From assembly GCF_964194155.1 (NCBI RefSeq), contig NC_135880.1:216132001-216196000 (forward strand): a stretch of DNA of 64,000 bases, given 5' to 3'. Below, piece after piece: positions 1,758-59,362 of the stretch (position 1 is its first letter; every line of letters starts with the position of its first letter). Below the pieces are notes generated by a model. That model was given only the letters and a program-made list of their open reading frames with translations. It did not search any database and was not told the origin of the DNA. A program made the translations under genes and the position numbers. This stretch comes from Cetorhinus maximus (lineage: Eukaryota).

Positions 1758-3287
1758 TTATTAATTTTGCTTCCAATTTCCACCCCTCCATCATTTTCAC
1801 ATGGGCCATCTCTGATACTTCCCTTCCCTTTCTTGACCTCTCTGTCTCAATTTATGGTGATAGACTGTCCACCAATATTCATTACAAGCTTACCGACTCC
1901 CACAGCTACCTCGACTACAGCTCCTCACACCCCGCTTCCTGTAAGGACTCCATCCCATTCTCTCAGTTCCTTCGCCTCTGTCGCATCTGTTCTGATGATG
2001 CCACTTTCAAAAACAGTTCCTCTGACATGTCTTCCTTCTTCTTTAACTGAGGTTTTCCACCCACAATGGTTAACAGGGCCCTCAACCATGTCCAGCCCAT
2101 CTCCCGCGCATCCTCACACCTTCCTCTCCCTCCCAGAACCATGATAGGGTTCCCCTTGTCCTCACTTATCATCCCGCCAGCCTCCGCATTCAAAGGATCA
2201 TCCTCCGCCATTTCCGCCAACTCCAGCATGATGCCACCACCAAACACATCTTCCCTTCACTCCCCCTGGTGGCATTCCACAGGGATCGTTCCCTCTGGGA
2301 CACCCTGGTCCACTCCTCCATCACCCCCTACACATCAACCCTCTCCCACGGCACCTTCCCATGCAACCGCAGAAGTTGCAACACCTGCCCCTTTACTTCC
2401 CCCCTCCTCACCGTCCTAGGGCCCAAACACTCCTTTCAAGTGAAGCAGCATTTCACTTGCACTTCCCTCAATTTAGTCTACTGCATTCACTGCTCCCAAT
2501 GCGGTTTCCTCTATGTTGGAGAGACCAAACGCAGACTGGGTGACCGCTTTGTGGAACACCTTCGGTCTGTCTGCAAGCATGACCCAGACCTCCCTGTCGT
2601 TTGCCATTTCAACACTCCACCCTGATCTCATGCCCACATGTCTGTCCTTGGCCTGCTGCAATGTTCCAGTGAAGCTCAACGCAAACTGGAGGAACAGCAC
2701 CTCATCTTCCGACTAGGCTTTACAGCCTTCCGGACTTAATATTGAGTTCAATAACTTTAGATCATGAACTCTCTCCTCCGTCCCCACCCCCTTTCCAATC
2801 CCCCTTTTTCCAATAATTTATATAGATTTTTCTTTTCCCATCTATTTCCATTATTTTTAAATGTATTTCCATCCATTGTTTTATCTCTACCTTTTAGCCT
2901 ATTTCGAACACTCCCCCCCACCCCACCCCCACTAGGGCTATCTGTACCTTGCTCGTCCTGCTTTCTACCCTTAATGTCACCAATAACACATTTCTTAGCT
3001 ATTATCACCACCGTCAACACCTCTTATCCTGTTGTCTATGACATCTTTGGCAATCTCCATCTATCACTGGCCCTCTATCCAGCTCTACCTGTCCCACCAC
3101 CCCCCCCTCCTCACTTCAACCAGCTTATATTTCACCTCTTTTCTATTTTTCCTTAGTTCTAATGAAGAGTCATACGGACTCGAAACATTAACTGTGTTCC
3201 TCTCCACAGATGCTGCCAGACCTGCTGAGTTTTTCTAGCTATTATTGTTTTGTTTCGGATTTCCAGCATCTGCAGTTTTTTGCTTTT
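1758..3287 (+). mobile_element. 5'-truncated Penelope-like element (RT C-terminus, Cys linker, GIY-YIG endonuclease, 3' pLTR)
   Basis: ORF pieces NLVYCIHCSQCGFLYVGETKRRLGDRFVEHLRSV and CNRRSCNTCPF; 14-bp TSD atgtcataaaacat at 1744-1757 and 3288-3301. Confidence 0.93.
3154..3194 (+). ncRNA. Degenerate minimal hammerhead ribozyme motif in PLE terminus
   Basis: tagtt-CTAATGA-a-gagtc-atacg-gactc-GAAA-catt-aactg; core G>A and ACGT>ACAT changes. Confidence 0.6.
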
Positions 3288-8900: not shown

Positions 8901-9853
8901 TCCTCAAGGCACATCAGAATAGAACTTACACATTTTTTGCAAAAAGAACTAGCATTAGATATAATGTCATGTAAAATCCCTGCATTGATTTGAAGGAAAT
9001 TACATTTAGAACAAAGTTTCTTTCATGACTATGGCCACTGGGCTGTGTTCCAAGTGTTTGCTGACACTGACTTGTTAAAATATTTTTTCAGGTTCCAACT
9101 GGGTTTTTGGGAGCAGGTGAGAAACAAATACCACCATAGCCACAGAAATTAGGGCAAGCCGTTAATGGTTCAATTGTTCATTGTTCATTCATTTGCTATT
9201 CCAGCAGAAGAGGTCTTACACCGTATGAGGAAAATTATATGAAATGATAATAGAAATAAGCACAAAACAGAACCAGAGAGTTGTAATGGTGTATCCATAA
9301 ACATTCCTTGCCACCATGGTATCACCGTTACTATGCTGTTTGCATTAATATGTTTTAATGTCTCTGACGTACATCATATCTGCGATTTCCTCCCCTTCTG
9401 TTACTCCTTGCAGTTGTCCAATTTTACTGATGCTGTGGTTAGTACAGTGTTCCATTGCTGTCATCATGTCTCTCTTATTGTGTTGTTAGGCAACCTACAG
9501 TTAGCTTTTGCATAAATATAATTGTATTTCTACTTGTCCCTGTTAGTCCCATATCATACTTAGTACATAGCAATAATTTTTTCAACTTGTTGATAACAGG
9601 CTGCATCAGTTGACAATCACAGAAAAACAGCTGAGCTGCTGAATTGAAGACATTTCTGCACATGGCAGCAGATCTTGGTTAAACCCTCCTTAGATCTAAA
9701 CAGGTGACAGGAACAGGAAGTGTGTGATGTTCTTGCGACCTGTTAGAAATAGAAGCTCTAAGATAAAAGCAAAAAACTGCGGATGCTGAAAATCCAAAAC
9801 AGAAACAAAAATACCTGGAAAAACTCAGCAGGTCTGACAGTCTGACAGGAACG

Positions 9854-9894
9854 CAGTTAACGTTTCGAGTCCATATAACTCTTCAACAGAACTA
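9854..9894 (-). ncRNA. Minimal hammerhead motif, CUGUUGA variant
   Basis: Reverse complement reads tagtt-CTGTTGA-a-gagtt-atatg-gactc-GAAA-cgtt-aactg. Confidence 0.65.
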
Positions 9895-9914
9895 AGGAAA
9901 AATAGATTTTTCCT

Positions 9915-9955
9915 TAGTTCTGTTGAAGAGTCATACTGACTTGAAACGTTAACTG
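9915..9955 (+). ncRNA. Minimal hammerhead motif, CUGUUGA variant
   Basis: tagtt-CTGTTGA-a-gagtc-atact-gactt-GAAA-cgtt-aactg. Confidence 0.65.
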
Positions 9956-10064
9956 TGTTCCTCTCTGCAGATGCTGTCAGATCTGCTGAGCTTTTCCAGG
10001 TATTTTTGTTTCTGTTTCAGAAATAGAAGCTCGGCAGAAGCAGCCACACGCAGATAGACAGTAG

Positions 10065-11182
10065 ATAAAAACCCCACCAGCCTCCGCATTCAAAGGATCA
10101 TCCTCCGCCATTTCCGCCAACTCCAGCATGATGCCACCACCAAACACATCTTCCCTTCACCCCCCCCCCCCCCCCCCCCCCACCACCCCCCAGCGGCATT
10201 CCGTAGGGATCGTTCCCTCCATGACACCCTGGTCCACTCCTCCATCACCCCCTACACCTCAACCCCCACCTACGGCACCTCCCCATGCATACGCAAAATA
10301 TGCAACACCTGCCCCTTCACTTCCTCTCTCCTCACCGTCCAAGGGCCCAAACACTCCTTTCAAGTGAAGCAGCATTTCACTTGCATTTCCCCCAACTTAG
10401 TCTACTGCATTCATTGCTCCCAATACGGTCTCCTCTACATTGGAGAGACCAAAGGCAGACTGGGCAACCGCCTTGCAGAACACCTTCGGTCCGTCCGCAA
10501 GCATTACCCAGACCTCCCTGTCGCTTGCCATTTTAACACTCCACCCTGCTCTCTTGCCCACATGTCTGTCCTTGGTTCGCTGCATTGTTCCAGTGAAGCT
10601 CAACGCAAACTGGAGGAACAGCACCTCATCTTCCGACTAGGCACTTTACAGCCTTCCGGACTGAATATTGAGTTCAACAACTTTAGATCTTGAACTCCCT
10701 CCTCCATCCCCACCCCCTTTCCATTTCTTCCCCCTCCCTTTTGTTTTTTCCAATAATTTATATAGATTTTTCTTTTCCCACCTATTTCCATTATTTTTAA
10801 ATCTATACCTTTTATGCCCTTTTAGTCTTATTTCACCCCACCCCCACTAGAGCTATCTGTACCTTGCATATCCTGCTATCCATTCTTAATTAGCACATTC
10901 TTTTAGATAATCTCACCACCTTCAACACCTCTTTGTTCTTTTGTCTGTGACATCTTTTGGTTATCTGCTCCTATCACTGCTTGCTTGTCCCTACAACCAC
11001 CCCCCCACCCCCCCCCAACTTCTCCCCCCACCTCCCCACCATAAACCAGCTTATATTTCACCCCTCTCCTATTTTTACTTAGTTCTATTGAAGGGTCATG
11101 AAGACTCGAAACATCAACTTTGTTCTTCTCCGCCGATGCTGCCAGACCTGCTAAGTTTATCCAGGTATTTCTGTTTTTGTTT
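10065..11182 (+). mobile_element. 5'-truncated PLE (GIY-YIG domain and 3' pLTR), second subfamily
   Basis: ORF 10364-10693 NLVYCIHCSQYGLLYIGETK...LEEQHLIFRLGTLQPSGLNIEF; TSD caga(t/c)agacagtag at 10051-10064 and 11183-11196; decayed hammerhead motif at 11080-11120. Confidence 0.92.
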
Positions 11183-12331
11183 CAGACAGACAGTAGCCTA
11201 ATTGCAACTCCCTATAACTCTCATGAAGGAAAGCACTGCCTCCTTGGCCTGTGGAGCTATAATGAAAGCTGACTTCAGAGTGAGACAAGTTTAAATGGTT
11301 TCTAGATGTAAAGGAGCATCATCCTCATGACAAATCTTATTTGTCTGTTTACAGATATGTTAAAAGATACTCTTCTGGCACTTCTTCCACCTTAGATCAA
11401 AAAGAAATTTGTTGCACACTTTTTAACACAGGTTATTATCCTTTATAGGGGATGCAATTGAGAAACCTTCACTTTGAACTTATTCCATGATGGTGCTCAG
11501 CTTACCCGTCATTTTCTGTGGAATTTTACAGGAATTGTAAAACCCAGTGTTTCCTTTGTGTTGCTAGCTCTTGGTTCTTCTTATCTGATCTTTCACTTAA
11601 CTATTTTGTTTGTTTGACTAAGTTCTTGATACTTTTGTCAATTTATAATGAATCTGTCAAGGAATAGGAGGAATACTTGGGTATCATTTTCAAAATGCAA
11701 TCAACATAATTGTACACTTAGCCCAACAGTGACACCTCCCAGAAGATTGATGCAGTCCCCATACCCATAGGAAACCACATGCTATAAATTTAATAAGGAT
11801 GCCATAAAGCTGTGGCAATAACTGTCCGTCTAAACATTATATTATGTGGCCAAACTATAACCTACTATAATACAAACTTGTACTTTGACTCTCTTTATCA
11901 GTGTATTCAACCCGTGAACATTAAAAAAGCAAAGCTGTTCATTTATATGCAATACAGGTAAAGCAGTTTGAATCAATGATGCAAAAAAGTGCAATTGGCT
12001 CTTCAAATTTCTCATTTGATTGACAGTGTGGCCTCCTGAATTTTCCATTCTGATGGGACATCCAGCTGTCACAGTGAGGTTTTAATTAGAAATGATTAAG
12101 TCGTTGTTGAACCAGGGCAGATAAAGTTGAAAACAACAATTGGACAGTGCGGACCTCACATCTACTCCATTGCTAATGCTAGGGAACAAAGGAGATTGCT
12201 TTCTTCTGTTCCTTTGAAAACTTGTTTTCCTTCCAACAATGCTTTACTGTCTATAAAAAAATGGTCGTCTAGCAGGTTTTTTTTTACCTCCAGACTTCCA
12301 TTTCCTCATCTCTTGCAAGGGAGGTGCTTTA

Positions 12332-12915: not shown

Positions 12916-13818
12916 AATGTACCATTTTCTCTTTCATTATTTTATGAAGTCATTTTATGATAATGTGCTTTCTGAAGATACAATTTCTCATTTTTCTTTT
13001 TCTGGATGGATTTTAAAAAGCTGGGACCCTGTACAGACATTGGGAAAATTGTCCAGACTGCTGCAACACCAACTTTTGTATTCCACCAAGACAGATACTC
13101 AATCCTCTGAGGAGCATGAAAGACCCCATCCCCTGTTGATTCACTCCATCCTGAGACATCTCAGATGGCTCTGAGATGAGACATCAAAATGCAATTACAT
13201 GTTCTGCAGCAGAAATGAGCTAGTAGAATTTTTCTGGAGTATACAGTCAGTGAGGCACTTCAAAGACCCCTTACCAAGCAAGAGAGGGAGGAAAAAAAAA
13301 GACAATGCTGGACTAAACACAGCGGATTGAAGCTGTGTTTCCTCTCTCTTTCTCTTGGAAGTGCTATGTCCAGTTTGCAAAATGACCATCCTGAGCAGAG
13401 AAACCAACTGCAAACCCCGAGCTCTTTTAAAACAAATGTGGAAATTTGCACCATACAGCGAAACCGAGGAGGACAGCTGAACAAAACGGCCGCGACGTTA
13501 AACCACCACATTGAGACCAGCCAAGGAAAAGCTAACCGTATCCTCCTTAGTTTTACCTTTCATGAACTGTAAAAATCCTATAAACCTATCCACTTTCTCT
13601 GCCACCTGTACTGATGTGTGTGTGTGGACCCAGATGAATGTGCGTGGCCATATGAATGGCAGGCATGTTTTACCTAGTCTTTTTAGCTCGGGAACTAGTT
13701 TCAACAAACTTATCTTGTTATTTAAAAGCAAAAAAACTGTGGATGCTGGATATCCAAAACAAAAACAAAAATACCTGGAAAAACTCAGCAGGTCTGGCAG
13801 CATCTGCGGAGAGGAACA

Positions 13819-13859
13819 CAGTTAACGTTTCGAGTCCGTATGACTCTTCAACAGAACTA
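13819..13859 (-). ncRNA. Minimal hammerhead motif, CUGUUGA variant, perfect stems
   Basis: Reverse complement reads tagtt-CTGTTGA-a-gagtc-atacg-gactc-GAAA-cgtt-aactg. Confidence 0.7.
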
Positions 13860-16800
13860 AGTAAAAATAGAAGAGAGGTGAAATATAAACTGGTTTAAGG
13901 GAGGGTGGGACAAGTAGAGCTGGATAGAGGGCCAGTGATAGGTGGAGATAGCCAAAATATGTCATAGACAAAAGGACAAAGAGGTGTTGAAGGTGGTGAT
14001 ATTATCTAAGGAATGAGCTAATTAAGGGTAGAAAGCAGGACAAGCAAGGTGCAGATAGCCCTAGTGGGGGTGGGGTGGGGCGAAGGAATCGAAAAAGGCT
14101 AAAAGGTAGGGATAAAACAATGGATGGAAATACATTTAAAAATAATGGAAATAGGTGGGAAAAGAAAAATCTATATAAATTATTGGAAAAAAAAGGGGGG
14201 GATCGGAAAGGGAGTAGGGATGGAGAAGAGAGTTCATGATCTAAAATTGTTAAACTCAATATTTAGTCCGGAAGGCTGTAAAGTGCCTAGTCGGAAGATG
14301 AGGTACTGTTCCTCCAGTTTGCGTTGAGCTTCACTGGAACAATGCAGCAGGCCAAGGACGGACATGTGGACATGAGAGCAGGGTGGAGTGTTGAAATGGC
14401 AAGCAACAGGGAGGTCTGGGTAATGATTGCGGACAGACCGAAGGTGTTCTGCAAAGCGGTCACCCAGTCTGCGTTTGGTCTCTCCAATGTAGAGGAAACC
14501 GCATTGGGAGCAACGAATGCAGTAGACTAAATTGAGGGAAGTGCAAGTGAAATGCTGCTTCACTTGAAAGGAGCGTTTGGGCCCTTGGACGGTGAGGAGA
14601 GGGGAAGTAAAGGAGCAGGTGTTCCACTTCCATTTGCATGGGAAGGTGCTGTGGGAGGGGGTTGAAGTGTAGGGAGTGATGGAGGAGTGGACCAGGGTGC
14701 CCCGGAGGGAACGATCCCTGTGGAATGCCACCGGGGGGGGTGAAGGGAAGATGTGTTTGGTGGTGGCATCATGCTGGAGTTGGCGGAAATGGCGGAGGAT
14801 GATCAGTCGCCCAGTTTACGTTTGGTCTCTCCAATGTAGAGGAGACCGCATTGGGAGCAACGATTGCAGTAGACTAAGTTAGGGGAAATGCAAGTGAAAT
14901 GCTGCTTCACTTGAAAGGAGTGTTTGGGCCCTTGGACGGTGAGGAGAGAGGAAGTGAAGGGGCAGGTGTTGCATCTTCTGTGTGGGCATGGGGAGGTGTC
15001 ATAGGTGGGGGTTGAGGAGTAGGGGGTGATGGAGGAGTGGACCAGGGTGTCCCGGAGGGAATGATCCCTACGGAATGCAGTCAAGGGGGGTGAAGGGAAG
15101 ATGTGTTTGGTGGTGGCATCATGCTGGAGTTGGCGGAAATGGCGGAGGATGATCCTTTGAATGCGGAGGCTGGTGGGGTGATAAGTGAGGACAAGGGGGA
15201 CCCTATCATGTTTCTGGGAGGGAGGAGAAGGCGTGAGGGCGGATGCGCGGGAGATGGGCCGGACACGTTTGAGGGCCCTGTCAACGACCGTGGGTGGAAA
15301 ACCTTGGTTAAGGAAGAAGGAGGACATGTCAGAGGAACTGTTTTTGAAGGTAGCATCATCAGAACAGATGCGATGGAGGCGAAGGAACTGAGCGAATGGG
15401 ATGGAGTCCTTACAGGAAGCGGGGTGTGAGGAGCTATAGTCGAGGTAGCTGTGGGAGTCGGTAGGCTTGTAATGGATATTGGTGGACAGTCTATCACCAG
15501 AAATTGAGACTGAGAGGTCAAGGAAGGGAAAGGAAGTGTCAGAGATGGACCATGTGAAAATGATGGAGGGGTGGAAATTGGAAGCAAAATTAATAAATTT
15601 TTCCAGGTTCAGATGAGAGCATGAAGCAGCACCGAAGTAATCATCGATGTACCGGAGAAAGAGTTGTGGGAGGGGGCCTGAGTAGGACTGGAACAAGGAA
15701 TGTTCCACATACCCCATAAAGAGACAGGCATAGCTGGGGCTCATGCGGGTACCCATAGCCACACCTTTTATTTGGAGGAAGTGAGAGGAGTTTAAGGAGA
15801 AATTGTTCAGTGTGAGAACAAGTTCAGCCAGACGAAGGAGAGTAGTGGTGGTTGGGGATTGTTCGGGCCTCTGTTCAAGGAAGAAGCAGAGAGCCATCAG
15901 ACCATCCCGGTGGGGGATGGAGGTGTAGAGGGATTGGACGTCCATGGTGAAGAGGAGGCGGTTGGGGCCAGGGAACTGGAATTTGTTGACATGATGTAGG
16001 GTGTCAGAGGAATCACGGATGTAGGTGGGAAGGAACTGGACAAAGGGAGAGAGAAGGGAGTCAAGATAGCAAGAAATGAGTTCCGTGGGGCAGGAACAGG
16101 CTGACACGATCAGTCTGCCGGGACAGACCTGTTTGTGGATTTTGGGTAGGAGATAGAAGAGGGCCATCCGAGGTTGGGAGACTATCAGGTTGGAAGCTGT
16201 GGAAGGAAGATCTCCAGAGGAGATGAGGTCAGTAACAGCCCTGGAAACAATGGCTTGATGTTCAGTGGTGGTGTCATGGTCCAGGGAGAGGTAGGAGGAA
16301 TGTCTGCAAGTTGACGCTCAGCCTCTGCGAGGTAGAGGTCAGTGCGCCAGACAACAACAGCACCACCCTTGTCAGTGGGTTTGATGACAATGTTGGGGTT
16401 GGACCTGAGAGAACGGAGTGCAGCACGTTCAGAGAGAGACAGGTTAGAGTGGGTGAGAGGAGCAGAGAAATTGAGACGACTAATGTCACGCCAACAGTTC
16501 TCAATGAAAAGATCAAGAGAAGGTAAGAATCCAGAGGGAGGGGTCCTGGTAGAGGGAGAATATTGGAGGTGGGTAAAAAGATCCATTGAACCGGAAGAGG
16601 ATTCCTGCCCAAAGAAGCGAGCATGGAGATAAAGGTGGCAGAAGAAGAGTTCAGCATCATGCCGATCCCGAAATTCATTGAGATGAGGGCGTAAGGGTAT
16701 GAAACTAAGTCCTTTGCTGAGCACTGAACGTTCAGCATCGGAGAAGGGAAGGTTAGGGGGTATGGTGAATACACGGCCGGGGCTGGGATTGGAAGACGGG

Positions 16801-17895
16801 ATGGGGACAGAGGCTCAGGCAGGGGTGGAGGATCCTGGATGGGTGTTGGTGTCGATGAGTTGTTGGAGCTTGCGTTCCTTAGCACCTGAAAGAAAGAGAC
16901 AAAGTTTCTTGCTGAGGCAACGGATGAGACGAAGAATAAAATGAAACTGGGGGCACGCGCAGCTTAGAAAAAGAGTGAGGTGGTGCTGCTGGAGGGAGAG
17001 GTCAAGTGTGTTCATATGGCGGCGCATGGCACTGATTGTGGATCTCAGAAAGCGACGAGGACAGCAGTCCGAGGAGCGTTGTATGTCCCGGAGATACCTG
17101 TAATCCTGGGTGGGTTTGAAACATGAGGGATGGAACTTCAGTTGAAATCCATGTGGGGTAAGTCAGAGATGGAAGTCAAACACTCCTTTCAAGTGAAGCA
17201 GCATTTCACTTGCACTTCCCTCAATTTAGTCTACTGCATTCGTTGCTCCCAATGCGGTTTCCTCTACATTGGATAGACCAAACGCAGACTGGGTGACCAC
17301 TTTGCAGAACACCTTCGGTCTGTCCGCAAGCATTACCCAGACCTCCCTGTCGCTTGCCATTTCAACACTCCACCCTGCTCTCATGCCCACATGTCCGTCC
17401 TTGGCCTGCTGCATTGTTCCAGTGAAACTCAACGCAAACTGGAGGAACAGCACCTCATCTTCCGACTAGGCACTTTACAGCCTTCCGGACTGAATATTGA
17501 GTTCAACAATTTTAGATCATGAACTCTCTCCTCCATCCCCACTCCCTTTCTGATCCCCCGCTTTTTTTCCAATACTTTATACAGATTTTTCTTTTCCCAC
17601 CTATTTCCATTTTTTTTTAATGTATTTCCATCCATTGTTTTATCTCTACCTTTTAGCCTTTTTCGATTCCTTCACCCCACCCCACCCCCACTAGAGCTAT
17701 CTGCACCTTGCTTGTCCTGCTTTCTACCCTCAATTAGCACATTCCTTAGATAATATCACCACCTTCAACACCTCTTTGTCCTTTTGTCTATAACCTCTTT
17801 TGGTTATCTCCACCTATCACTGGCCCTCTATCCAGCTCTACTTGTCCCACCCTCCCTTAAACCAGCTTATATTTCACCTCTCTTCTATTTTTACT

Positions 17896-17936
17896 TAGTT
17901 CTGTTGAAGAGTCATACGGACTCGAAACGTTAACTG
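17896..17936 (+). ncRNA. Minimal hammerhead motif, CUGUUGA variant, perfect stems
   Basis: tagtt-CTGTTGA-a-gagtc-atacg-gactc-GAAA-cgtt-aactg. Confidence 0.7.
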
Positions 17937-18527
17937 TGTTCCTCTCCGCAGATGCTGCCAGACCTGCTGAGTTTTTCCAGGTATTTTTATTTTTGTATTT
18001 TTATCTTGTTATTTGTTTAACTTAAGCAAACCTGTCTGAATAATTCTTTACAACCTCGAAGTGTAAATAGTGGGGCTCTTACATAATCGGTGAAGCACAT
18101 CCTCTCTAAATTCCCTAAAAGACCCTGTTGCAGTCAAACATGGAGTGGGAGAATAGGGGAGTTATTTCACTCCTCCTCACGTGATCATAACAATGAAAAC
18201 ACCCCCCTGAGCTTTATTGTCTTTTTTCTTAAACATTTCCAATGCACTAACTTGCAAGCTCATCGCCACCACTATATTTTCACTGTATTGAAATCTAACC
18301 CCATGGGCAATATCTCATTCTCATCCTTTCCTGGGACCTTGAAATGATAGAACTGTTTACCACCCTTATCCTTTCCTTCCATCTGCAATCACAAGCTTTT
18401 AAACTCAGATTTGGTGTTGGTTGACTGTTGCTTTAATTTAATTTATCTTCTCATTTACTGTTTCATCCTTGTGCTGCTCAGCAAATAAAGGTTTTGGTTC
18501 TTTATCTTGATTTATCAATAAGTTCCA

Positions 18528-21925: not shown

Positions 21926-22046
21926 GAACACACGCCCCATGACAACCTTCAGGACCAAACTGTCCATCCTGAGCCTAATCATTATTTTCTTTTTTTAAAT
22001 TTCAGTATGCCATGCATTATTCCCTTGCCATAACATGATTACATGG

Positions 22047-24137
22047 AACAAAAACAAAAATACCTGGAAAAACTCAGCAGGTCTGACAGCATCTGCGGAG
22101 AGGGATACAGTTAACGTTTCGAGTCCATATGACCCTTCATCAGAACTAAAAAATATAGAAAGATGAAATATAAGCTGGTAAAGGGGGGTGGGAGGGACAG
22201 GTAGAGCTTGATAGGGGGCCAGTGATAGGTGGAGGCCAAGAAGAGACTGCCAAAGATGTCATAGACAAAAGGACAAAGGGGTGTTGACGGTGGTGATATT
22301 ATCTAAAGGATGTGCTAATGGGGACATTAAAGGTAGCAAGCAGGACAAGCTAGTGGCAGATGGCCCTAGTGGGGCTGGGGTGGGGGGAAGGGAATGAAAT
22401 GGGCTAAAAGGTGGAGATGAAACAATAGATCGAAATAAATTTAAAAATAAGTGGGAAAAGAAAAATATATTTGTTTAAAAATTATAAATTATTGACAAAA
22501 GGGGGATCGGAAAGGAGGTGGGGATGAAGGAGAGAGTTCATGATCTGAAATTGTTGAACTCAATATTAAGTCTGGAAGGCTGTAAAGTGCCTAGTCGGAA
22601 GATGAGGTGCTGTTCTTCCAGTTTACGTTGAGCTTCACTGGAACATTGCAACAGGCAACAAGGACATGTGAACATGAGAGCAGGGTGGTGTGTTGAAATT
22701 GCAAGCGACAGGGAGATCTGGGTCATGTTTGCAGACAGACCGAAGGTGTTCCGCAAAGCGGTCACCCAGTCTGCGTTTGGTCTCTCCAATGTAGAGGAGA
22801 CCGCATTGGGAGCAGCGAATGCAGTAGACTAAATTGAGGGAAGTGCAAGTGAAGCGCTGCTTCACTTGAAAGGAGTGTTTGGGCCCTTGGACAGTGAGGA
22901 GAGGGGGATTAAAGGGGCAAGTGCTGTGGTTGCATGGGAAGGTGCCGTTGGAGGGGGTTGAGGTGTTGGGGATGATGGACCAGGTGTCCCGGAGGGAACG
23001 ATCCCTGCGGAAAGCCGCCAGGGGGGGTGAAGGGAAGATGTGTTTGGTGGTGGCATCATGTTGGAGTTGGCAGAAATGGCAGAGGATAATCCTTTGAACG
23101 CAGAGGCTGGTGGGATGATAAGTGAGGACAAGGGGGACCCTATCATGGTTCTGGGAGGGAGAGGAAGGTGTAAGGCCGGATGCGCAGGAGATGGGCCAGA
23201 CACGGTTGAGGACCCTGTCAACCACAGTGGGTGGAAAACCTCGGTTAAGGAAGAAGGAAGACATGTCAGAGGAACTGTTTTTGAAAGTGGCATCATCAGA
23301 GCAGATGCGACAGAGGCGAAGGAACTGAGAGAATTGGATGGAGTCCTTACAGGAAGCGGGGTGTGAGGAGCTGTAGTCGAGGTAGCTGTGGGAGTTGGTA
23401 GGCTTGTAATGGATATTGGTGGACAGTCTATCATCAGAAATTGAGACTGAGAGGTCAAGGAAGGGAAGGGAAGTGTCAGTGATGGGCCACGTGAAAATGA
23501 TGGAGGAGTGGAAATTGGAAGCAAAATTAACAAATTTTTCCAGGTCCAGACGAGAGCATGAAGCGGCACCAAAGCAATCATCGATGTACCGGAGAAAGAG
23601 TTGTGGGAGGGGGCCGGAGTAGGACTGGAACAAGGAATGTTCCAAAAAGAGACAGGCATAACTGGGGCCCATGCGGTTACCCATAGCCACACCTTTTATT
23701 TGGAGGAAGTGAGAGGAGTTTAAGGAGAAATTGTTCAGTGAGAGATCAAGTTCAGCCAGATGGAGGAGAGTAGTGGTGGATGGGGATTGTTCGGGCCTTT
23801 GTTGGAAGGAAGACCATCCCAGTGGGGGATGGAGGTGTAGAGGGATTGGACGTCAATGGTGGAGAGGAGGCGGTTGGGGCCAGGGAACTGGAAATTGTTG
23901 ATATGATGTAGGGTGTCAGAGGAATCACGGATATAGGTGGGAAGGGACTGGACAAGGGGAGAGAGAATGGAGTCAAGATAACAAGAAATGAGTTCCGTGG
24001 GGCAGGAACAGGCTGACACGATCGGTCTGCCGGGACAGTCCTGTTAGGAGGAAGTGTCTGCGAGTTGACGCCCAGCCTCTGCGAGGTAGAGGTCAGTGTG
24101 CCAGCCAACAACAGCACCACCCTTGTCAGCGGGTATG
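22047..24137 (-). mobile_element. 5'-truncated PLE (RT, GIY-YIG, pLTR) with an internal deletion near 24045
   Basis: ORF 22635-23690 with FLRYIDDCF and YIGETKRRLGDRFAEH; 12-bp TSD atgattacatgg at 22035-22046 and 24138-24149. Confidence 0.93.
22108..22148 (-). ncRNA. Minimal type-I hammerhead ribozyme with intact canonical core
   Basis: Reverse complement reads tagtt-CTGATGA-a-gggtc-atatg-gactc-GAAA-cgtt-aactg: stem I UAGUU/AACUG, stem II GGGUC/GACUC, palindromic ACGU stem III, GUU cleavage triplet. Confidence 0.8.
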
Positions 24138-26331
24138 ATGATTACATGGCCTGTTCTGACATACTTAGCATTAGCATTTCGTTAACAGCTGTTAAAAAGT
24201 ATGTTATAGAATTCCAGGGTAACTCAGCAGCAATCTTCCCTGACTCCATGTAGATGCATCCATTAGACACCTCAGGGCGAGAGCTTGTTTCAGCCATTTT
24301 TCAACCTTATAATAGGTGTTGTGCTCGGACAGTGTACCAGCAGCCAGCGACTCAAGGCTCACCCAAAATGGACCTTATGGCATAATGCCTGCGAGCTGCA
24401 GGTGCCAATTGGGCAACTGGTGGCAATTCACCAGTTCCACAAGGGCAAAGTTTGATAAGGCTGGTCCAGGCATGATGAGCAAGGGATTGGGTGAGAGGGA
24501 CAGAGGTGATCGGGAAAGGGGAAGGTGATTAGGAGAGGCCGAACAGGTGCTGGACATGGTCTTCAGCACTACCTGGACTCAGGAAGAGCACTCCTGGTTC
24601 CTCATTCCAGTTATTTTTTTTGAAACGATGTGCAGTTTTGTAGGCAGCCTCTAGGGATTGCTGATTGGGCTGCATGTAGACCTGGTTATCCTAAGCACAG
24701 CAAGCCTGACGCCAGTTGGGTTCAGGGATGCCCAGTTTCAGAAAGGGGGCCTCAGACAAAGCCCCCTTTCCTATATTTGCATATGCAAAGGTCCTAAAGC
24801 CTGTTCAGCTATAAGCCTGAATGTCTGTACCGCAACCCTTACCCATATGGTGGGCAATGTAATTCTGGCATGGAATGTGCACGTGTACACTGCCCACTAT
24901 ATTGGATGCATATGTGCCCATCTTATGCCTCCAAAATGGGCACAGACATTAACAAATTTGCAATATATATCCATGTTGGGAATTCCAGGTGCGGGTATTT
25001 TTTTGGGGAGAGGTGAAAGTCATAATGATCTGAATGGGGGCTGACTACATCCTCTTATCTACCTGTGTAAGTCAATAATTTATATCATGACTTTACTTTA
25101 CCTTAGTAAGTTTCAATGAAATTACCTCTTAAATTAAATCCTTTAAACTGTAAGGTTTTGAGTAATCTGCGCTTCACCCAAGAATTTTATTTTTAAATAT
25201 GTATATCAACTCGATGAATCAAGCTTTTGATATCTTGGCTGGTTACATTGATTCATGCTGGTGCTTCAGCTGCTCATCAAGGCTGACTAGATGAAACTCT
25301 TTATCATCAGCTGGGATCCAAAAATATGTCTGTAACAGCTGCAGGAGCTTTGTAAGTGAGACAGAATATTATTTTTTTTCCAGTAAGTTTGAGCTCATGT
25401 AGTATTTAGCTTTACACACATTTTAAACAAGTATTTTAATAGTATTGTCAACTTTACCCAACTGACCAGAAATGGAGGGTCAGTATGTGAAACCGCTTGC
25501 CTGTCTTCTCTACTGATGCTGCTTCATTCACTGAGTATTTCCAGCATTTTCTGTTGATGTTTCAGCATCTGCAGTGTTTTTGGTTTTTTTTGGAATTGTG
25601 CAGCATGTCAGTGTGCCAAGGTTGGAGAGCGAGGGTATGGCAGTAAACAGGGCCAGGCTGACGCTTTCAGGTCTTATCTGGCGCACTGAGCAGAGAGGGG
25701 TATTGAGTGATGGCTGTATATTTGTCTACGGGGAGGAAGTGAGGGTAAAACATCCAATGCTGACCTCATGCTAAGGGATTTAGCAGATCGAAGGAGGGAG
25801 AAGCTTAAGTCAAGGAGCAAAATGCTGGTAGAAAAGAAAAGCTGAACTTAGTCAGGCCAAAATATAGTATTTTTCGTCACATTCTATTAGCTATCAACTC
25901 TGTCATATCATCTTAACTGTGGAACAGAAAGAATAATAATTGGATAATGAAATATTCACAATTTAAGGTTCACAAAAACACCCACATTAACAACAAAAAA
26001 TGTTAAGTACAAAGATTGGAATTTTCCAAAGATCCTTTATTGATTAAGCAGTGCTGAAAACGAACTGGATGTAAGAATGGAAGAGAAGAGGCAGGAACAA
26101 TTAACCAGGTACAAAGGTGTTATGCCTGTGCCCCAGTCTCCCTGCAACCTAGGTGTAAGTGGAAAAGGAGCCTCATGAACTAGTTGGAGGAAAATATAAA
26201 GCATTAGATCTATTATGCCCAAAGGTTTTGAGAGCATCATCAAACATTCAGACATCACACTTATTGGGGGAAATTTTAACCTATCCCAGCAAACTAGGAT
26301 ACTGACAGGGCTGAGTGCAATACATTGCATC

Positions 26332-26471: not shown

Positions 26472-27030
26472 TTTTCCAGATGGTGAGTTCATTTAAAGAT
26501 GTCTCCAATGTGTATATAAATAGGACAAAAGCCAGTCCTTTCATGCTATTTCTTTCTGAACTGGAGCTGAGAATTTACAAGCACATTCCAATCTGCAAGC
26601 TTCCTTCACAGAATACCACTCTGATCTCAGGCTGTTAATTTATAGCAGTTAAATTTTGTAGCCATAAAGGACAGCTTAAACACAGCTTCATTATGATATT
26701 GAATAATATAATATTAGATAGCATAGAAACAATATGTTTCAGTCTTCTTCGCCACGTATACCATTCTTTCCCCAAAGCCTTTCAACCTTCTTTCAAGTAA
26801 CTCTCTAACTCAATTTTAAAGGTGCTTGTGACATCTGCTCTTACTAATAGAAATCCTGTGCACGATCTGATTCATCATGAATATTACCGTCAAAGACCTA
26901 ATAGGGTAAAAATAAATATGGACTAATATTGTGGTTAGGAAAAATATCAGCCAAAGTCATTGCAAAAATTTACCTTGATGTATATTCCTTTTAAATAATG
27001 TCTCCTATGCAAAACTAGATTTCAGGCATA

Positions 27031-27427
27031 AAAACAGAAAATGCTGGAAAAACTCAGCAGGTCTGGCAGAATTTGTGGAGAGAGAAACAGAATTAACGTT
27101 TTGAGTCCATATGACTCTGCTTCAGAGCAATATGGAATTGAAACATTAACTGTTTCTCTCTCCACAGATGCTGCCAGACTTGCTGAGTTTTTCCAGCATT
27201 TTTTTTGTTTTTTACACCTGGAATCTAGTTTTTCATAGAAGACATTATTTAATGAGAGAGAAAAACAGAGTTAACGTTTCGAGTCCATATGACTGCTTCA
27301 GAGCAATATGGACTCAAAACGTTACTTCTGTTTCTCTCTCCACAGATGCCACCAGACCTGCTGAGTTTTTCCAGCATTTTCTGTTTTTATTTCAGATTTC
27401 AGCATCCGTAGTATTTTGCTTTTATCT
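27031..27427. mobile_element. Double palindromic PLE-terminus element containing an inverted copy of flanking DNA
   Basis: Two fold-back units of pLTR ends; imperfect 15-bp TSD tagatt(t/c)ca(g/a)gcata at 27016-27030 and 27428-27442. Confidence 0.8.
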
Positions 27428-27850: not shown

Positions 27851-28142
27851 TAGATAGCAGTGACCACAAGGCCAGTTATATCTAATAGAAACTAAAACCA
27901 AATTAGTTGGTAATCAGGCAGTGGTTAGGTAGTATCATTTCCTCTGTTAATGAGCTTTCCCTTATCCCTGACTACTAAAAGACCACTTAGATGTGTCAGG
28001 AACTCAGAAGCCTAGTAGTCATCCATTTTAGCTGTACAGATGAAAATTACTTCACAGTAGGCAGCATTCTACCATCTTCCCCAAAGGCTAATGGGAAAAG
28101 AAAAGCCAAGATTATACTTTATTTTACTTCTCACCCAAAAGC

Positions 28143-30705
28143 AGAATCACAGAATCACACAGTGCAGAAGAGGCCCTTCGGCCCATCGAGTCTGCACCGA
28201 CATGTGAGAAACACCTGACCTACCCACCTAATCCCACTTACCAGCACTTGGCCCATACCTTGAATGTTATGATGTGCCAAGTGCTCATCCAGGTACTTTT
28301 TAAAGGATGTGAGGCAACCCACCCCCACCACCCTCCCAGCAGCGCATTCCAGACCGTCACCACCCTCTGGATAAAAAAGTTTTTCCTCACATCCCCCCTA
28401 AACTTCCTGCCCCTCACCTTGAACTTGTGTCCCCTCATGACTGACCCTTCAACTAAGGTTCAATGGCTGGTTCAGTTCAGTTTCTGGTCAATAGTAACCC
28501 CCAGGATGTTGATATTGGGGAGTTCAGTGAACTTGTGTCCCCTAGTGACTGACCCTTCAACTAAGGGGAACAGCTGCTCCCTATCCACCCTGCCCATGCC
28601 CTTCATAATCTTGTACACCTCGATCAGCTCATCCCTCAGTCTTCTTTGCTCCAATGAAAACAACCCAAGTCTACCCAACCTCTCTTCATAACTTAAATGT
28701 TTCATCCCAGGCAACATCCTGGCAAATCTTCTCTGCACCCCGTCCGGTGCAATCACATCCTTCCTATTACGTGGTGACCAGAACTGCACACAGTACTCCA
28801 GTTGTGGCCTCACCAAGGTTCTATCAACTCCAACATGACCTCCCTACTTTTGTAATCTATGCCTCGATTGATAAAGGCAAGTGTCCCATAAGCCTTTTTC
28901 ACCATCCCACTAACATGCCCCTCCGCCTTCAGAGATCTATGGACATGCCAAGGTCCCTTTGTTCCTCAGAACTTCCTAGTGTCATGCCATTCATTGAATA
29001 CTTCCTTGTCAAATTACTCCTTCCAAAGTGTATCACCTCACACTTTTCAGGGTTAAATTCCATCTGCCACTTATCTGCCCATTTGTCCATCCTGTCTATA
29101 TCTTCCTGTAATCCAAGACACTCAACCTCACTGTTAACCACCTGGCCAATCTTTGTGTCATCCGCAAACTTACTATCCAACCCTCCATATAGTCGTCTAT
29201 GTCGTTTATATAAATGACGAATAATAGGGGACCCAGCACAGACCCACTGGATATTGGCTTCCAATCACTAAAGCAGCCTTCTGTCATCACCCTCTGTCTC
29301 CTACTACTAAGCCAATTTTGAATCCACCTTATCAAATTACCCTGTTTCCCATGTGCATTTGCCTTATTTATAAGTCTCCCATGTGGGACCTTGTCAAAGG
29401 CTTTGCTGAAATCCATTTAAACTGCATCAACTGCACTACCCTCATCTACACACCTGGTCACCTCCTCAAAAAATTCAATCAAATTTGTTAGGCTTGACCT
29501 CCCTCTGACAAAGCCATGCTGACTATCCCTAATCAAACCTTGCCTCTCCAAGTGGAGATAGATTCTCTCCTTCAGAATTCTCTCCAATAGTGTCCCTACC
29601 ACTGACGTGAGACTCACTGGTCTGTAGTTCCCTGGCTTATCTCTACAACCCTTCTTAAATAGCGGAACCACATTAGCTGTTCTCTAATCCTCTCGCACCT
29701 CCCCCGTGGCCAGAGAGGAATTAAAAATTTGGGTCAGAGCCCCTGTGATCTCCTCCATTGCCTCCCTCAGCAGTCTGGGACACAAATCATCCAGACCTGG
29801 AGATTTGTCCACTTTTAAGCCTGCCAACACCTCCAATACCTTGTCAATCCCTATATCAATTAGCTTAAGAACCTCACAGTCTCTCTCCCTGAGTTCCATA
29901 CCTTCATCCTCATTCTCTTGGGTGAAGATGGATGTGAAGTATTCGTTCAACACTCTAGCGATGTCCTCTGGCTCCACCCATAGATTTCCCCCTTGGTCCC
30001 TAATGGGCCCTACTTTTTCCCTGGTTACCCTCTTCCCATTGATATACTAATAGAATATCTTGGGATTTTCCCTACTTTTCCCAGCCAGAGCTTTCTCATA
30101 TCCCTTCTTTGCTGTCCTAATTGCTTTCTTAAGCTCCACCATGCACTTTCTGTACTCCACTAATGCCTCCACTGATTTGCTCCCCTTGTACCTGCTAAAA
30201 GCCTCTCTTTCCCTTCTCATGGTATCCTGGATATCTCTGGTCATCCATGGTTCTCTGGGCTTGTTACTCCTTCCTATCACCCTAGAGGGAACATGTTGAG
30301 CCTGTACCCTCCCCATTTCCTTTTTGAATGCCCCCACCCCCCCACCCCCCGCCCCACTGTAGATTTCCCCACAAGTAGCTGTTCCCAGTCTACCTTGGAC
30401 AGATCTTGCCTTATTTTACTAAAATCCGCTCTCCCCCAATCCAAAACATTTTTTTGCAACTTGTCTATTTCTTTGTCGATAACAAGTTTAAATTGTATCA
30501 TGTTGTGGTCGCTATTACTAAAATGCTTCCCCACCACCACCTCAGCCACCTGTCCGGTTTCATTCCCCAGAATTAGTTCCAGCACTGCGCCGTCCCTTGT
30601 TGGACCCTCTACATATTGGCCTAAAAAGTTCTCCTGTACACATTTCAAGAAATCCATCCATCCAAGCCCTTCTATCCCAACTAATGTTGGGAAAGTTGAA
30701 ATCAC
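28143..30705 (-). mobile_element. CR1 LINE, ~2.5 kb 5'-truncated, frameshifted ORF2
   Basis: Motifs PGNYRPVSLTS, DFSKAFDKVPH, SVLGPLLF, FADDTK, VRPQLEYCVQFWSP; (ATTCTGTG)n-type 3' tail at 28143-28160. Confidence 0.95.
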
Positions 30706-33479
30706 CTTTAAATTACACTTTAAATTGAAAAAAAAGGCTCCTTAACTTTGTTGATGTTTCAACTTCCTTTTGTTATCTTTTAGTTCTTTTTAGTAGATCA
30801 GCTTTGTAGATTTTATGCAAAAGAGCATTTTATTTTGCAACAGGAGCACATTTTCAGTACAAATGTTGAACCAAATGAAGCTTAATGATACATCTGAATG
30901 TTAAGACCTTAGAAATTGTGATTAATATAATTCTGTGCTTTAATGAAACCATGCCTTAGGAAAAAGAAGTAATCTATTTTAATACATGTTTTTTTTTACA
31001 TTTTAGTTTTATCTTTCAATTTTCCTCTTTTAAATGAAAGCGAAGATTCAAATTAGAATTATTTTACTTATAATTTTGGAAAAATATGTTTATGCTTGTT
31101 AATTTTTTTACAAATTCAGTTCAAAGTTTCATGTAAAGTTTCATCATAATAATTTAGTCCATCAAATACCCCATAGCATTTTTCTTCCAAAGTAAACTTG
31201 GACCATGATTTCAATAATTGTAGTTTATTCACGTCACTGAATAGAAACATGCTGCCATTCTATAAATCTCCCTTATTCTATTTAATACAGTACACATGCA
31301 ATTAAAAAGTTACAAAATGTGAAGTATTTTCTGGCTTTTACATGGAAAGGAAAAGGTGTGCAGTTTAAAAGATACAAATGAACTAAAAGGATAGGAACCT
31401 ATTTATATTAACAACTCTGAGCCTATCATGATAGTATCAAGAAATGACATGTTTATAAAGCCTCGTTAAAAATTATTTAAAAACTTAGGCCGAGAACTGC
31501 AATAAATGACATATTCCTCAGCGACCCTATTTACAGAGGACTTACTATCAATCAACAAATTTACTGTTGTCATTTTAATATCTGGTTCTGTGGGCTATAA
31601 ATACAATGACAGAGGGCAATTTACAATCCATTAGCGACTCCATTTGTTTGTGTATTTGTACTCACCCTTGTCTTAATTGTACATGACAATATAGTGCTAT
31701 TGCACTTAGTGGAATTAATGGAATGGTGTTTAATTGACTTTTACCCACATCACTTCTAAGAGTAAACAGGCATAGTTCATGTTAATACACTTAACCCATG
31801 TTAATTGTGTTTTTACCTCATTAAGGAGCAATTGAAGCATTTCTCCATAACTTCCAAAATATTGGTATTTTACAGAAAAGTGATTATTGATGTATAATTA
31901 GAACAGAAGGGAAGGAAAGTACACAAGGTCATCCAAAGCAGACAGAGTCATCTTCCAGGCCAAATGGATAGAGTTGCAAAGAGAGTGCAGAAAAACTCAG
32001 TGCTCAATCAATTGTTCCACATGCTACAAGAATCCTGATGAGGGTGTACTAGGACATAGGACATAGGTTTCAGTAATGTCAAGGCCATCAGTTATTTTAC
32101 CGTGATACGGCATGTCAGCACTTGAGGGGTGGACTGAGCAATGGTAGCACAAATTCTCAGTAGTGGTGCAATTGAAGAACTCAAAATGAGGTAGGGCTGG
32201 TAGTGCCAATTCTCTGAGCGCTCTCCCTTCAAGAATGGCATCCCACTGGGAGCACAAAATTGGGGAATTCATTCTATAGGGACAACTGTACAGGTAGTTA
32301 CCTGACCTGAGACGTTATCCCCCAAAATGACAGGCACTGGAAATGAAAACATCACTTATGAGCCAAAGACCTCCAATTTCAGGAGAGTCCCTGATCTGCA
32401 GTTTGAGCAGGAAAATATAGGTTACCATTTTAATTGGAGACCTTTGGTCAAAACCAATGAACGATCTCTATTAGAAATCTCAATCTGTATTTTCTCTTAG
32501 TTGTTGGTGGAATTGCTGTCTATTTTCTGCTTTTATTTCAGATTTCCAGAATTTGTCTTTTTCGCCTTTAAACACTGAATTGTATGACAGATTGTAGAGC
32601 TGATTTTAACTTCCAGAAGTGTCAGAAAACTGGCACTGATGGACCGAGAGTCCATTATAGACCCCACTGGAAAATCAGGTGGGCTGTACATAACAGCCCA
32701 ATCCATGTCTGCTTGTTTTGCTAGCATCACTGAACATTAACCCTTCAGTGATTTAGCTTTTAACACATAATCTCCTATTAAGTCCAATTACATTTTATTG
32801 TCAAAGCTTTGAACATGATTGGCCTGTTCCATGTAATTTTTTTTTGGTTGGTGATAAGTTATATGAAAGAAACAGCTGGGAGCACTCCCAAGAATAATTA
32901 ATTTCTTTTATCGCAAGTAAAAAGCGATAATGATTGCCATTACAGGCATGAAATAAAAGCATATTAGATATAATAGTCAAAGTATTTGTGGATAAATTTG
33001 GGACCCCAGTCAACAAGCTGGACATCAGAAATGCCAGAAAAGCTTCCCAGTGGCTCAGTGAGAAGTGTTGCAGTGCTCAGTTATAGAGAACATGCAGGTC
33101 CCAGCTTCAAGCCCTTATGTGTGCTTATTTAGCCAACAGATGTCCAAGGAGACAGGGCTCAGCAGTCCTGGGAGTAAGTTGGACAGAGGAGTCCTTAGGC
33201 TGGCAAGTGAGTTCAGGGTCAAGTTATGAAAGCCCCATATTTGAATAGCCTATTGTGTGAAGGAAGATCCTGGGAAGGTGGCTGAGGGCACCTTGTGTAA
33301 ATGTGTTTCAATGTGTGTCACCTTCTTGCAGAGAAGAGGGGCAAAGGGTAAGAAATTGAAGGTATGAGTTAATCATTGTGTAAACCAGATTTCATTTGTG
33401 ACAAATATTATTAATTAGGCTTCTAGCTTTATAAATACAGAAGATATCAACATGTGTTAACATTAGTCATTTTTTAAGG

Positions 33480-33629: not shown

Positions 33630-34093
33630 TCAGGAACTACTCTTATCCTTCTCCTTCTCTATATTGTTATTTGCCCCAGGCTTTTTTGCCACGGGTTGCG
33701 ATTCAACGTTGATTTTCACGTTGTTTATTTTGGGTTGCACCTCATCTCCTTTTCTCTGCGCCTCAATGCACAGGATTCCATCGTGGGACAGTGTCGACCG
33801 AACCAGCAGAGGGTCCACGTCCAGGGGCAGGATGTAGGTGCGTGTGAACTCCCGGGAGATAAAACCGTGACTGTCCAGTTTCTGCGAATGTCTCCCAGAC
33901 ACCTCCAGCAGGTTGTCAACTGTCCGAACTGAGAGCTCGTCTGGCAGGAACTGGCAGACATCCAGGAATACCTGAAATTTATGATGCTTTGTTTCAATTT
34001 TTGAGAAGCCTCGGTCCAGCTGTTTATTGATCCTGGGTCTGATGTAGTAACCATGGTACAATGTGGGAGCTAAAATATCTTCCGATGACAAAC
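33630..34093 (-). CDS. HSPB2: Heat shock protein beta-2, exon 2 (alpha-crystallin domain)
   Basis: tttgcag acceptor; GLSSEDILAPTLYHGYYIRPR...VRTVDNLLEV...HGFISREFTRTYILP...LSHDGIL matches vertebrate HSPB2; spliced CDS is 558 nt, 185 aa. Confidence 0.96.
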
Positions 34094-34379
34094 CTGCAAA
34101 ATGTATTGGAAGTTATCAAACTGTAAACAATAGAGGATGTAACTTTATAATATATTATGATGTCAGATGTTATATTATAGGACTAGCATATCAGATGTTA
34201 TGTTCTGGATAGATTCATGATTAAAATTCATATTAGTTTTACATTCCAAAATCTGATTTGCTGTTCCATGAGGAAAATATTTCACCATTTCTTAATTACA
34301 AACCTTACCTGCCCTGGGTCCTTTTTCAGAACTGCACACACTCTGGTTAATAGAGTGTGCTTTCCGGCCCCAGGAGTTT

Positions 34380-51290: not shown

Positions 51291-51760
51291 CAAAACAAAA
51301 ACAAAATTAGCTGGGAAAACTCAGCAGGTCTGACAGCATCTGCGGAGAGGAATACAGTTATCGTTTCAAATCTGTACGACTCTTCATCAGAACTAAGGAA
51401 CTATAGAAATGAGGTGAAATATAAGCTGGTTGAGGGGGGTGGGACAGGTAGAGCTGGATAGAGGGCCAGTGATAGGTGGAGGCAAAGAAGGGATTTCCAA
51501 AGATGTCATAAACAAAAGGACAAAGGGGTGTTGGCGGTGGTGATATTAGCTAAGGAATGTGCTAATGGTGACATTAAGGGTAGAAAGCAGGACAAGCAAG
51601 TGACAGATAGCCCTAGTGGGGGTGGGGTGGGGGGAAGGGATCGATCTGGGGGGAAGGGATCGTTAACTGTATCCACAGGTGCTGTCAGACCTGCTGAGTT
51701 TTTCCAGCTATTTTTGTTTTAGTTTCAGCTTTCCAGCATCCGCGGTATTTTGCTTTTATT
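51291..51760 (-). mobile_element. PLE pLTR remnant with a short inverted end; hammerhead motif at 51355-51395
   Basis: Matches PLE 3' region; 12-bp TSD ttcctggatttc at 51279-51290 and 51761-51772; motif CTGATGA...GAAAcgat. Confidence 0.88.
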
Positions 51761-57965: not shown

Positions 57966-58280
57966 TGTATTGTTAGTTACCCATTTAGGAAGAATACAAA
58001 AAAGTTAAAGACAACACTGTCTTCCACACCAGAGTTAATTTATGATGTAACTTCCAGTTCAAATCTATAGTAGTTTCAGCTTTGAAACTGTCCAAAAGCT
58101 ACTATAATGATTGTACTGCAGTAATTTGCACCTTGTCTCCATCCACCTTTTATTCCTTTCTTCCATTACGACCCTTTCTTGCCTTGCACCACCATCCCTT
58201 TTGTCATTTTTGTTCTCTCACTCCCCTACCTCTGCCTCACCTGTACTAGCTTAAAACCTGTTGCATTTTAAACTTCTTTC

Positions 58281-58319
58281 CAGTTCTGATGGAAGGTCAT
58301 CGACCTGAAACATTAACTC
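58281..58319 (+). ncRNA. Degenerate hammerhead motif of another PLE family
   Basis: cagtt-CTGATGG-a-aggtc-atc-gacct-GAAA-catt-aactc. Confidence 0.5.
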
Positions 58320-59362
58320 AATTTTTCTCTCTCCGCTGCTGAGTATTTCCAACGTTTTTCTGTTTTTATTTTCTGTTTCTCTGCTGGGTTGCACGTGGTG
58401 AGAATTGAGGTATACTGTAAATAGTGGTCAGTTTGATTTAAATGCTTCTGATAGATGTGCACACCAAATAAGCTAACATCTTACCTAATCTGCCTGTAAA
58501 GGAGGTGTTCACTTGCAAGAAGATGGATGGAGAATGATTTGTACCTTGGGTGTTATTGTGACAACCTAATTTGGCTCTTAGATTTTCCTACTTAAATTGA
58601 CTCAGTCACTGAAGCCTGCTTTAGTTCAGCCATCAACTGGAACCAGTTTGGCTGAAGTGCCATCTAACTCTACTCTCATCCCAGACAAGTTAAGGATTAA
58701 TGGGTCACAAGAGAAATACCTACTTTATTCCAAAACTGAAACATCAGGCAAACATGATGGCAGTAAAATCATTAGTAACTGGACTATTATAGTGATATGT
58801 AATTTTTTTTAAAAGTTAGCATTTGGACTAGACATTGTCTAGATTAAAGTAGCCATCATAGCACCATTCATTTTAAGATAACACGGTGTACTAGCATTCA
58901 TAATTATTTAAACTTCTAATTCCAGGATGTTATGCTGAAAAAAAGAAAATGGAAAACTTTTATGTAATATTTTTCTGAAGTAATTGTGAGCAAAACGATG
59001 GCTGTACAGCTGGACTTAGAGGAGTGATTAGGAGTTTATGAAATGTGGCAGCTCATCTAATAATGTAAAATCCTAATTGAGGTAGCACGTAGAGACATAA
59101 CGCGGTATGGTAATATGGCTTATCAGCTAATTTTAATATAATTGATTGATTGTATATTGTAACCTTGGAGATGGGTGCAGCATAAGATAGCATATCTGTA
59201 ATGTTCAGTTTTGAGGGTTAAAAATATGTACTTGGCAAAGGTTGTCCCTTCCAGTTTATATGGTAATGAAAGAAGTTTCAGTGATGCTCAAAACCTGCCA
59301 CTTTATAATATAGACAGGAACCGATTACAACAGCATATTAATCCTTGACCATTATCCTTCAG

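Follow-up and report, generated by a model that had tools for sequence, protein, structure and literature searches.

A canonical minimal hammerhead in a dead Penelope-like element of the shark Cetorhinus maximus and the core variants of its younger relatives

Background

Minimal hammerhead ribozymes are known from the pseudo-LTRs (pLTRs) of Penelope-like elements (PLEs). The text of Cervera and De la Pena 2014 (PMC4209133) describes type I motifs with an extra A after A9, a G10.1-C11.1 pair, a palindromic loopless helix III, a short stem I and GUU or GUC at the cleavage site, in elements that leave thousands of dispersed truncated copies and inverted pairs; the motifs analyzed here share all these traits, including the position in the pLTR. 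According to that account, monomers of the minimal motifs are inactive and dimers weak, and the 56 representatives in the supplement all carry A at core position 6 (A6), which the descriptor required, and include no cartilaginous fish. The copy numbers given there for coelacanth and Xenopus (4,000-9,000) are lower than those found here. In the parts of PMC8557442 that bear on the subject, the purpose of the hammerhead in PLEs is called unclear.

For PAc, a Poseidon-clade element of Anolis carolinensis, the relevant sections of Frangieh et al. 2024 (PMC11167929) report that two internal start sites of reverse transcription set the tail, that the hammerhead lies upstream of both, that catalytic mutants insert normally, that cleavage needs protein and that uncut RNA is the main template. 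The shark family likewise has two apparent internal starts downstream of a hammerhead, and its end distributions agree with an uncut template. In PAc, however, the motif overlaps the start codon, whereas the first ATG of the shark element is at +154; moreover, unlike PAc, the shark element has a CX4CxxC finger in its linker and a natural core-base change in its young lineage. The same substitution, A6C, is found in the hammerhead of phage Bcep176, and A6C hammerheads are described as cleaving slowly in Mg2+ and being rescued by Mn2+ (PMC7151607, PMC3088659); in these accounts, the phage case is a single motif with a full helix III, in contrast to the more than 17,000 dimer-type shark copies with C at this position (C6), apparently reached via U6.

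By architecture, the shark family resembles the EN+ PLEs of Neptune and Nematis type as portrayed in PMC8557442 and PMC3846280, with a single reverse transcriptase (RT) and C-terminal GIY-YIG frame, a DKG motif, a CX2-5CxxC linker, partial tandems, an inverted 5'-truncated arm and a one-sided tail, but the focal copy differs from them in being solo, without an inverted arm. In the literature searched, we found nothing on position-6 variants in PLE hammerheads; Lunse et al. 2017 deals with hammerhead variants of PLEs and may list some.

Results and discussion

The focal motif and the element that carries it

The window (the whole 64,000-nt stretch of C. maximus DNA analyzed here, contig NC_135880.1, positions 216,132,001 to 216,196,000) contains a motif that the initial annotation described as an intact minimal hammerhead in the terminus of a shark PLE. 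The features of this region are as follows, in window positions.

22108..22148, minus strand: minimal type-I hammerhead motif (core, stems, descriptor)
22148-22144 with 22112-22108, minus strand: stem I
22135-22131 with 22125-22121, minus strand: stem II
22143 and 22140, minus strand: core C3 and A6
22117-22114, minus strand: palindromic ACGU
between 22113 and 22112, minus strand: predicted cleavage (GUU site)
22047..24141, minus strand: whole insertion, a dead 5'-truncated PLE of Neptune or Nematis type (alignment to the young unit)
22538..24141, minus strand: RT and GIY-YIG frame, now broken into three segments with 84-95% identity to the intact 924-aa protein
22149..22537, minus strand: 3' UTR or pseudo-LTR upstream of the motif, with a terminal pyrimidine tract and an AG overlapping stem I
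22047..22112, minus strand: tail 3' of the cleavage site, whose end near +66 falls in the short class of reverse-transcription starts
22035..22046: 12-bp target-site duplication at the element's 3' end (word found twice in the window)
24138..24149: the same 12-bp duplication at the 5' end (word found twice in the window)
33630-34112, minus strand: host HSPB2 exon
46850-47356, minus strand: part of host CFAP68

The minus-strand letters of 22148-22108 agree with the initial annotation over all 41 nt. Both stems are fully paired (5/5 each), helix III is the loopless palindrome ACGU, and the core is canonical at 11 of 11 positions (C3, U4, G5, A6, G8, A9, G12, A13, A14 and the pair A15.1-U16.1), with U at H17. 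This makes the focal copy a canonical minimal type-I hammerhead, of a kind already known (Cervera 2014), and its description as dimer-type holds for the core, both stems and the palindromic helix. A strict canonical descriptor was passed by one of the 17 profile matches in the window, namely the focal copy, and by nothing in 50 window shuffles. The bare CUGANGA..GAAA pattern was rejected as evidence for the motif since its frequency in the window is at chance level (8 observed, 8.8 expected). A search with Rfam covariance models returned 6 matches at E up to 1, none of them to a hammerhead family, and the fold z-score of the motif is -1.0. The modelled active dimer has an energy of -11.9 kcal/mol, while the best cofold reaches -20.6 kcal/mol; neither for the dimer nor in flanking sequence, where other folds win, is the active fold predicted as the minimum. 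Cleavage in vitro is plausible if the motif were forced into a dimer or supplied with the element's protein.

The assignment to a PLE terminus is borne out by the RT and GIY-YIG remnant, which lies about 390 nt upstream of the motif. The insertion aligns to positions 1100-3292 of the young 3,292-nt unit described below, plus about 66 nt of tail, and is damaged by one deletion of about 160 nt and by frameshifts; it is solo, with neither an upstream pseudo-LTR nor an inverted arm at this locus. A non-LTR retrozyme, that is, short non-coding tandem hammerhead units, was considered and rejected for the focal copy, which is a solo coding remnant. The pyrimidine tract and AG at its stem I could represent a splice acceptor or an initiator. 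Most of the 29 best genomic relatives of the focal copy have GUC at the site (22 have CGUC, 4 have CGUU and 3 have other words); 21 relatives align over 400 nt, and the closer 14 of these are 90-94% identical to it.

No host exon was found around the element, as 0 of 24 frames in 1-33.6 kb match a host family, and the HSPB2 exon and the part of CFAP68 lie at least 11 kb upstream on the same strand. Two shark proteins match the HSPB2 exon at 89% identity, and most non-chondrichthyan matches of similar coverage are at most 74% identical, in line with the annotated shark origin. Two further observations concern the rest of the window: positions 27991-30745 hold the remnant of a different RT-bearing element (RVT_1 match at 28929-29264), and a low-complexity purine-rich repeat at 353-1248 gives rise to long open frames on the minus strand.

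Sister motifs in the window

Eight copies of the motif had been annotated in the window, and all the listed sites are indeed homologous, but only one of the eight is canonical, four are U6 and three are broken. The motifs other than the focal one are listed below.

3149..3251, plus strand: decayed motif with G5A and a broken helix III
9798..10019: two short arms forming a fold-back pair (motifs at 9854 and 9915), both cores U6
11076..11184, plus strand: decayed motif, G5A plus U6
13758..13863, minus strand: U6 motif (at 13819) with the tail, from a longer nested element
17892..17996, plus strand: U6 motif and tail
27010..27394: older-subfamily motifs in two decayed fold-back pairs, cores all broken
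51294..51399, minus strand: A6 motif whose cleavage triplet carries U16.1A
58279..58358, plus strand: short-loop family motif, A9G, helix III broken

The related family announced at 58281 is homologous but, with A9G and a broken helix III, not intact. The remnants reported near 27090-27330 are real and comprise four arms (27030-27380), each with A9C, with G12A or without a core. The window holds no same-strand canonical partner for the focal motif; the nearest same-strand motif with intact stems is the U6 copy at 13758..13863, 8.3 kb downstream. In the nested U6-type elements at 13758-17996, an RT-EN stretch of 504 aa is open (14803-16317), and an inverted arm ends at 17996.

Copy number and core variants in the genome

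A profile search of 118 evenly spaced 10-kb stretches (1.18 Mb) found 107 remnants, which extrapolates to about 362,000 in the genome (297,000-438,000). The canonical descriptor was passed by only 3 of the 107, or about 10,000 intact canonical motifs genome-wide (2,000-30,000), so the very high density claimed for self-cleaving motifs stands for remnants, but the intact canonical ones are far fewer. The window itself is about 3-fold denser than the sample (17 matches against 5.8 expected). Descriptors with another base at position 6 were passed by 4 (U6), 7 (C6) and 0 (G6) of the sampled remnants, and searches that require A6 would overlook 11 of the 14 intact motifs in this random sample. When decayed copies are included, the 72 random matches that cover the core have A in 41, U in 16, C in 13 and G in 2.

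Exact 35-nt patterns occur 3,294 times with A6, 5,409 times with U6 and 253 times with G6 in the genome; the 17,379 C6 copies come from a looser pattern, and this count is not strictly comparable with the other three. Reversed-pattern controls gave zero matches against these thousands of exact copies. Young copies were collected with a pattern for the tail only, which marks 40,106 young 3' ends; around the first 100 listed, we examined 101 distinct copies, with 68 whole motifs, of which 46 are C6 and 22 are U6. The canonical A is absent from all 68 without exception.

Young intact elements

A protein search yielded 85 scored matches out of 104,835 candidates, many with 924-aa open frames and identical scores. 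The young unit, measured between successive cleavage sites, is 3,292 nt long and codes for an RT, a CX4CxxC linker and a GIY-YIG domain. In the 924-aa protein, RVT_1 (E 9e-7) and GIY-YIG (E 5e-4) both fall just under the Pfam cut-offs, and the motifs DKG, YIDD and YIGET are present, with CX4CxxC at residue 790, between RT and EN. We found in this family the attributes of EN+ PLEs, namely one frame with RT and C-terminal GIY-YIG, pLTRs, partial tandems, an inverted arm and a one-sided tail; judged by these sequence features, it is an EN+ PLE, of Neptune or Nematis type by its linker and not by a tree. A CX2-5CxxC finger between RT and EN is presented in PMC8557442 as a Neptune feature shared with Nematis.

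The motifs at the 50 loci from the intact-frame search are C6; the exceptions are a truncated arm and the U6 copy of the window itself. Five loci (L119-L122, L129) contain tandem arrays of up to at least 3 near-identical 3,292-nt units with intact frames and flanking inverted arms, and these elements were likely active very recently. A simple origin of the inverted arm, by folding back from the longer one, was rejected because the long tail is about equally often on the shorter arm. Internally deleted, non-coding, retrozyme-like derivatives were also observed (L291:2214-3374 and L312:138-801), in which the 3' UTR contributes its last 80-330 nt, joined to the first ~275 nt of the unit, with periods of ~600 and ~360 nt.

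Order of the core changes and selection on the fold

For a tree independent of the motif, we used the endonuclease region, which was present in 94 of 262 matches and gave 50 distinct rows. The tree forms a ladder, with old, basal A6 copies, then U6 plus C6 (support 95/86), then C6 (100/98) with end branches of at most 0.01; it is midpoint-rooted, with bootstrap values not fully settled, rows derived partly from targeted searches and two rows in which the coding region belongs to a neighbour. The focal copy, a member of an older subfamily, has an end branch of 0.054. Core position 6 thus likely changed from A to U to C along the lineage that stayed active. An alternative hairpin pairing position 6 with the tail, as the cause of U6 and C6, was rejected; this tail hairpin, although seen in folds, is not supported because the C6 families have lost one of the neighbouring pairs.

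Covariation of the stems, a check proposed in the initial annotation, was found in 20 distinct hand-picked copies (score 0.223 against 0.179 in shuffled alignments, reached by 0 of 500 shuffles). In the same copies, 98% of stem II cells are paired, with double changes in 2 pairs; the 3 pairs with double changes overall are equalled by 185 of 500 shuffles, the events being few and relatedness inflating the scores. In C6 copies, stem II pair 10.4-11.4 switched from U-A to C-G, and it is Watson-Crick in 17,176 of the 17,379, the exceptions being 122 mismatches and 81 wobbles.

Among the 68 young motifs, G5, G8, A9 and U16.1 are each kept in 66-68; the GUU at stem I and the GAAA, having served to select the rows, are necessarily invariant. 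Young copies often have broken outer stem I pairs. Mutants of G8 number 394 against 17,379 and lie mostly at CpG; at 30 loci with a G8 change, the second arm keeps G8 in 12 of the 13 insertions where it is visible. The lack of a large G8-mutant subfamily fits continued selection on catalysis. By comparison of subfamily majorities, the tail is roughly as conserved as the core, a region-wise result weakened because some groups were small, some loci had been chosen for their G8 changes and the alignment was faulty where the frame ends. In an old A6/A7 subfamily (L199-L208), a C-A mismatch in stem I occurs in 728 exact copies against 330 paired ones; this mismatched subfamily was amplified, so the fold was not always kept. 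Separately, a few insertions (L111, L242/L243) have the same G8 change in both motif copies, which points to copying of a template without catalytic activity or to homogenisation of the arms.

Ends of the inserted copies

The 101 young copies, from late-U6 and C6 families on one contig (48,945-6,390,129; L249-L327, L220), include 52 that end within 100 nt of the tail and 49 that run further or were recovered by gapped alignment. Only 1 of the 101 has its 5' end within 3 nt of the cleavage site, whereas 15 end at -39 to -33, a density of 2.7 per 100 per nt, compared with 0.42 in the interval from -90 to -40 (Poisson p 3e-8, with the proviso that arms of one insertion are not independent). Long insertions continue through the cleavage site into further units, and the 3' ends are bimodal, at about +60 to +79 and +101 to +120. 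Given one start at the site against 15 located 33-39 nt upstream, the inserted templates were likely uncut.

The site of the peak near -35 is a pyrimidine tract-YAG and also a short quasi-palindrome; its sequence fits an initiator consensus. Three of the 15 copies ending there are not visibly joined to an inverted arm. The peak may mark a transcription start, a splice acceptor of the kind for which D. virilis offers a precedent in the text of PMC4209133, or joining at the quasi-palindrome. Among the short copies, we found no common exon 5' of the stem-I AG that would indicate splicing, and four donor-like motifs are absent from the young 385-nt UTR.

In the random sample, 5 of the 107 matches, all from older families, begin between -3 and +2 of the cleavage site; seven old copies starting near the site were inspected and showed neither an upstream half-motif nor a shared insert. 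In three places (L056:5092, L057:4523, L147:4249), old tails begin at most 3 nt from the site after a GGAAAAT-like word, possibly the end of another inserted repeat. Contigs presumed to derive from RNA contain sequence of the family, and no listed piece spans the focal 3' junction; since assembled contigs cannot show RNA ends, they give no evidence either way on focal expression. One 154-nt contig of a presumed-RNA run (depth 6,269) spans the motif from the beginning of stem I onward, with 9 differences (L120:7021-7106).

A model of the family and competing explanations

We propose that the RT-endonuclease would prime on its own RNA at two internal sites, about 70 and 112 nt past the cleavage site, and that reverse transcription would copy through the uncut motif, so that each insertion longer than about 110 nt would acquire a motif. 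Cutting would occur only as a dimer via the ACGU palindrome, probably with the element's protein, and the fold would likely persist chiefly as a cis element with a structural or slow-cutting role. Because young members replaced the core letter (A to U to C), cutting was likely not needed for spread. The focal motif is thus likely an inert passenger in the 3' pseudo-LTR of a dead PLE, with cutting in the family probably dispensable for insertion and the fold serving as such a cis element. More tentatively, and with slightly less than even confidence, we suggest a two-step detuning (A6 to U6 to C6) in which compensatory, fold-keeping changes would have turned a catalytic RNA into a slow or non-cutting 5' cis element, with a start about 35 nt upstream of the old site; the genome would hold the whole series, and the focal copy would be a fossil of the canonical stage.

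It is also conceivable, although we consider it unlikely, that the ribozyme is attenuated but required, such that U6 and C6 spare the templates while some protein-assisted cutting and religation yields unit-length circles as templates for more-than-unit copies. A circle model is proposed in the text of PMC4209133, and cut-and-religated circles would also fit the read-through of the site, the multimers and the near-identical 3,292-nt tandem units. The near-invariance of G5, G8, A9 and U16.1 in young copies, the restriction of G8 mutants to the level of CpG decay and the measurable activity that A6C retains, above all with Mn2+, point the same way. However, a circle has no end at -35, where 15 of 101 copies stop, G8 is changed in both copies of a few insertions (L111, L242/L243), and the anole catalytic mutants insert normally in vitro according to PMC11167929.

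That the focal copy is transcribed and self-cleaves in vivo, as the initial annotation held possible, is in our judgment very improbable. Its core and stems are intact, GUU is frequent among the PLE motifs published in PMC4209133, and the ACGU palindrome would let this copy pair as a heterodimer with the U6 copy located 8.3 kb downstream, or with other transcripts in trans. Nevertheless, we obtained no positive evidence of activity for this truncated, frameshifted solo element, which has no upstream pseudo-LTR, no same-strand canonical partner in the window and no host exon among the 24 frames searched, and whose active fold is disfavoured by the energies given above; the inactive monomers and weak dimers reported in PMC4209133 argue against it as well. 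Finally, a chance match or assembly artefact, for which the chance-level bare pattern, the lack of an Rfam hammerhead family and the z-score might be cited, is refuted by the exact copies with zero reversed-pattern controls, the descriptor's absence from shuffles, the fixed position in the element and the 12-bp target duplication.

Conclusions

Taken alone, the focal copy is ordinary, a motif of a known kind, and the interest lies in its family. What this analysis adds is the ladder from A6 to U6 to C6 and the counts of the variants. Within one lineage, the genome preserves core variants as a natural, ordered series, together with intact young elements, and this combination allows a direct test of whether cleavage was tuned down or lost.
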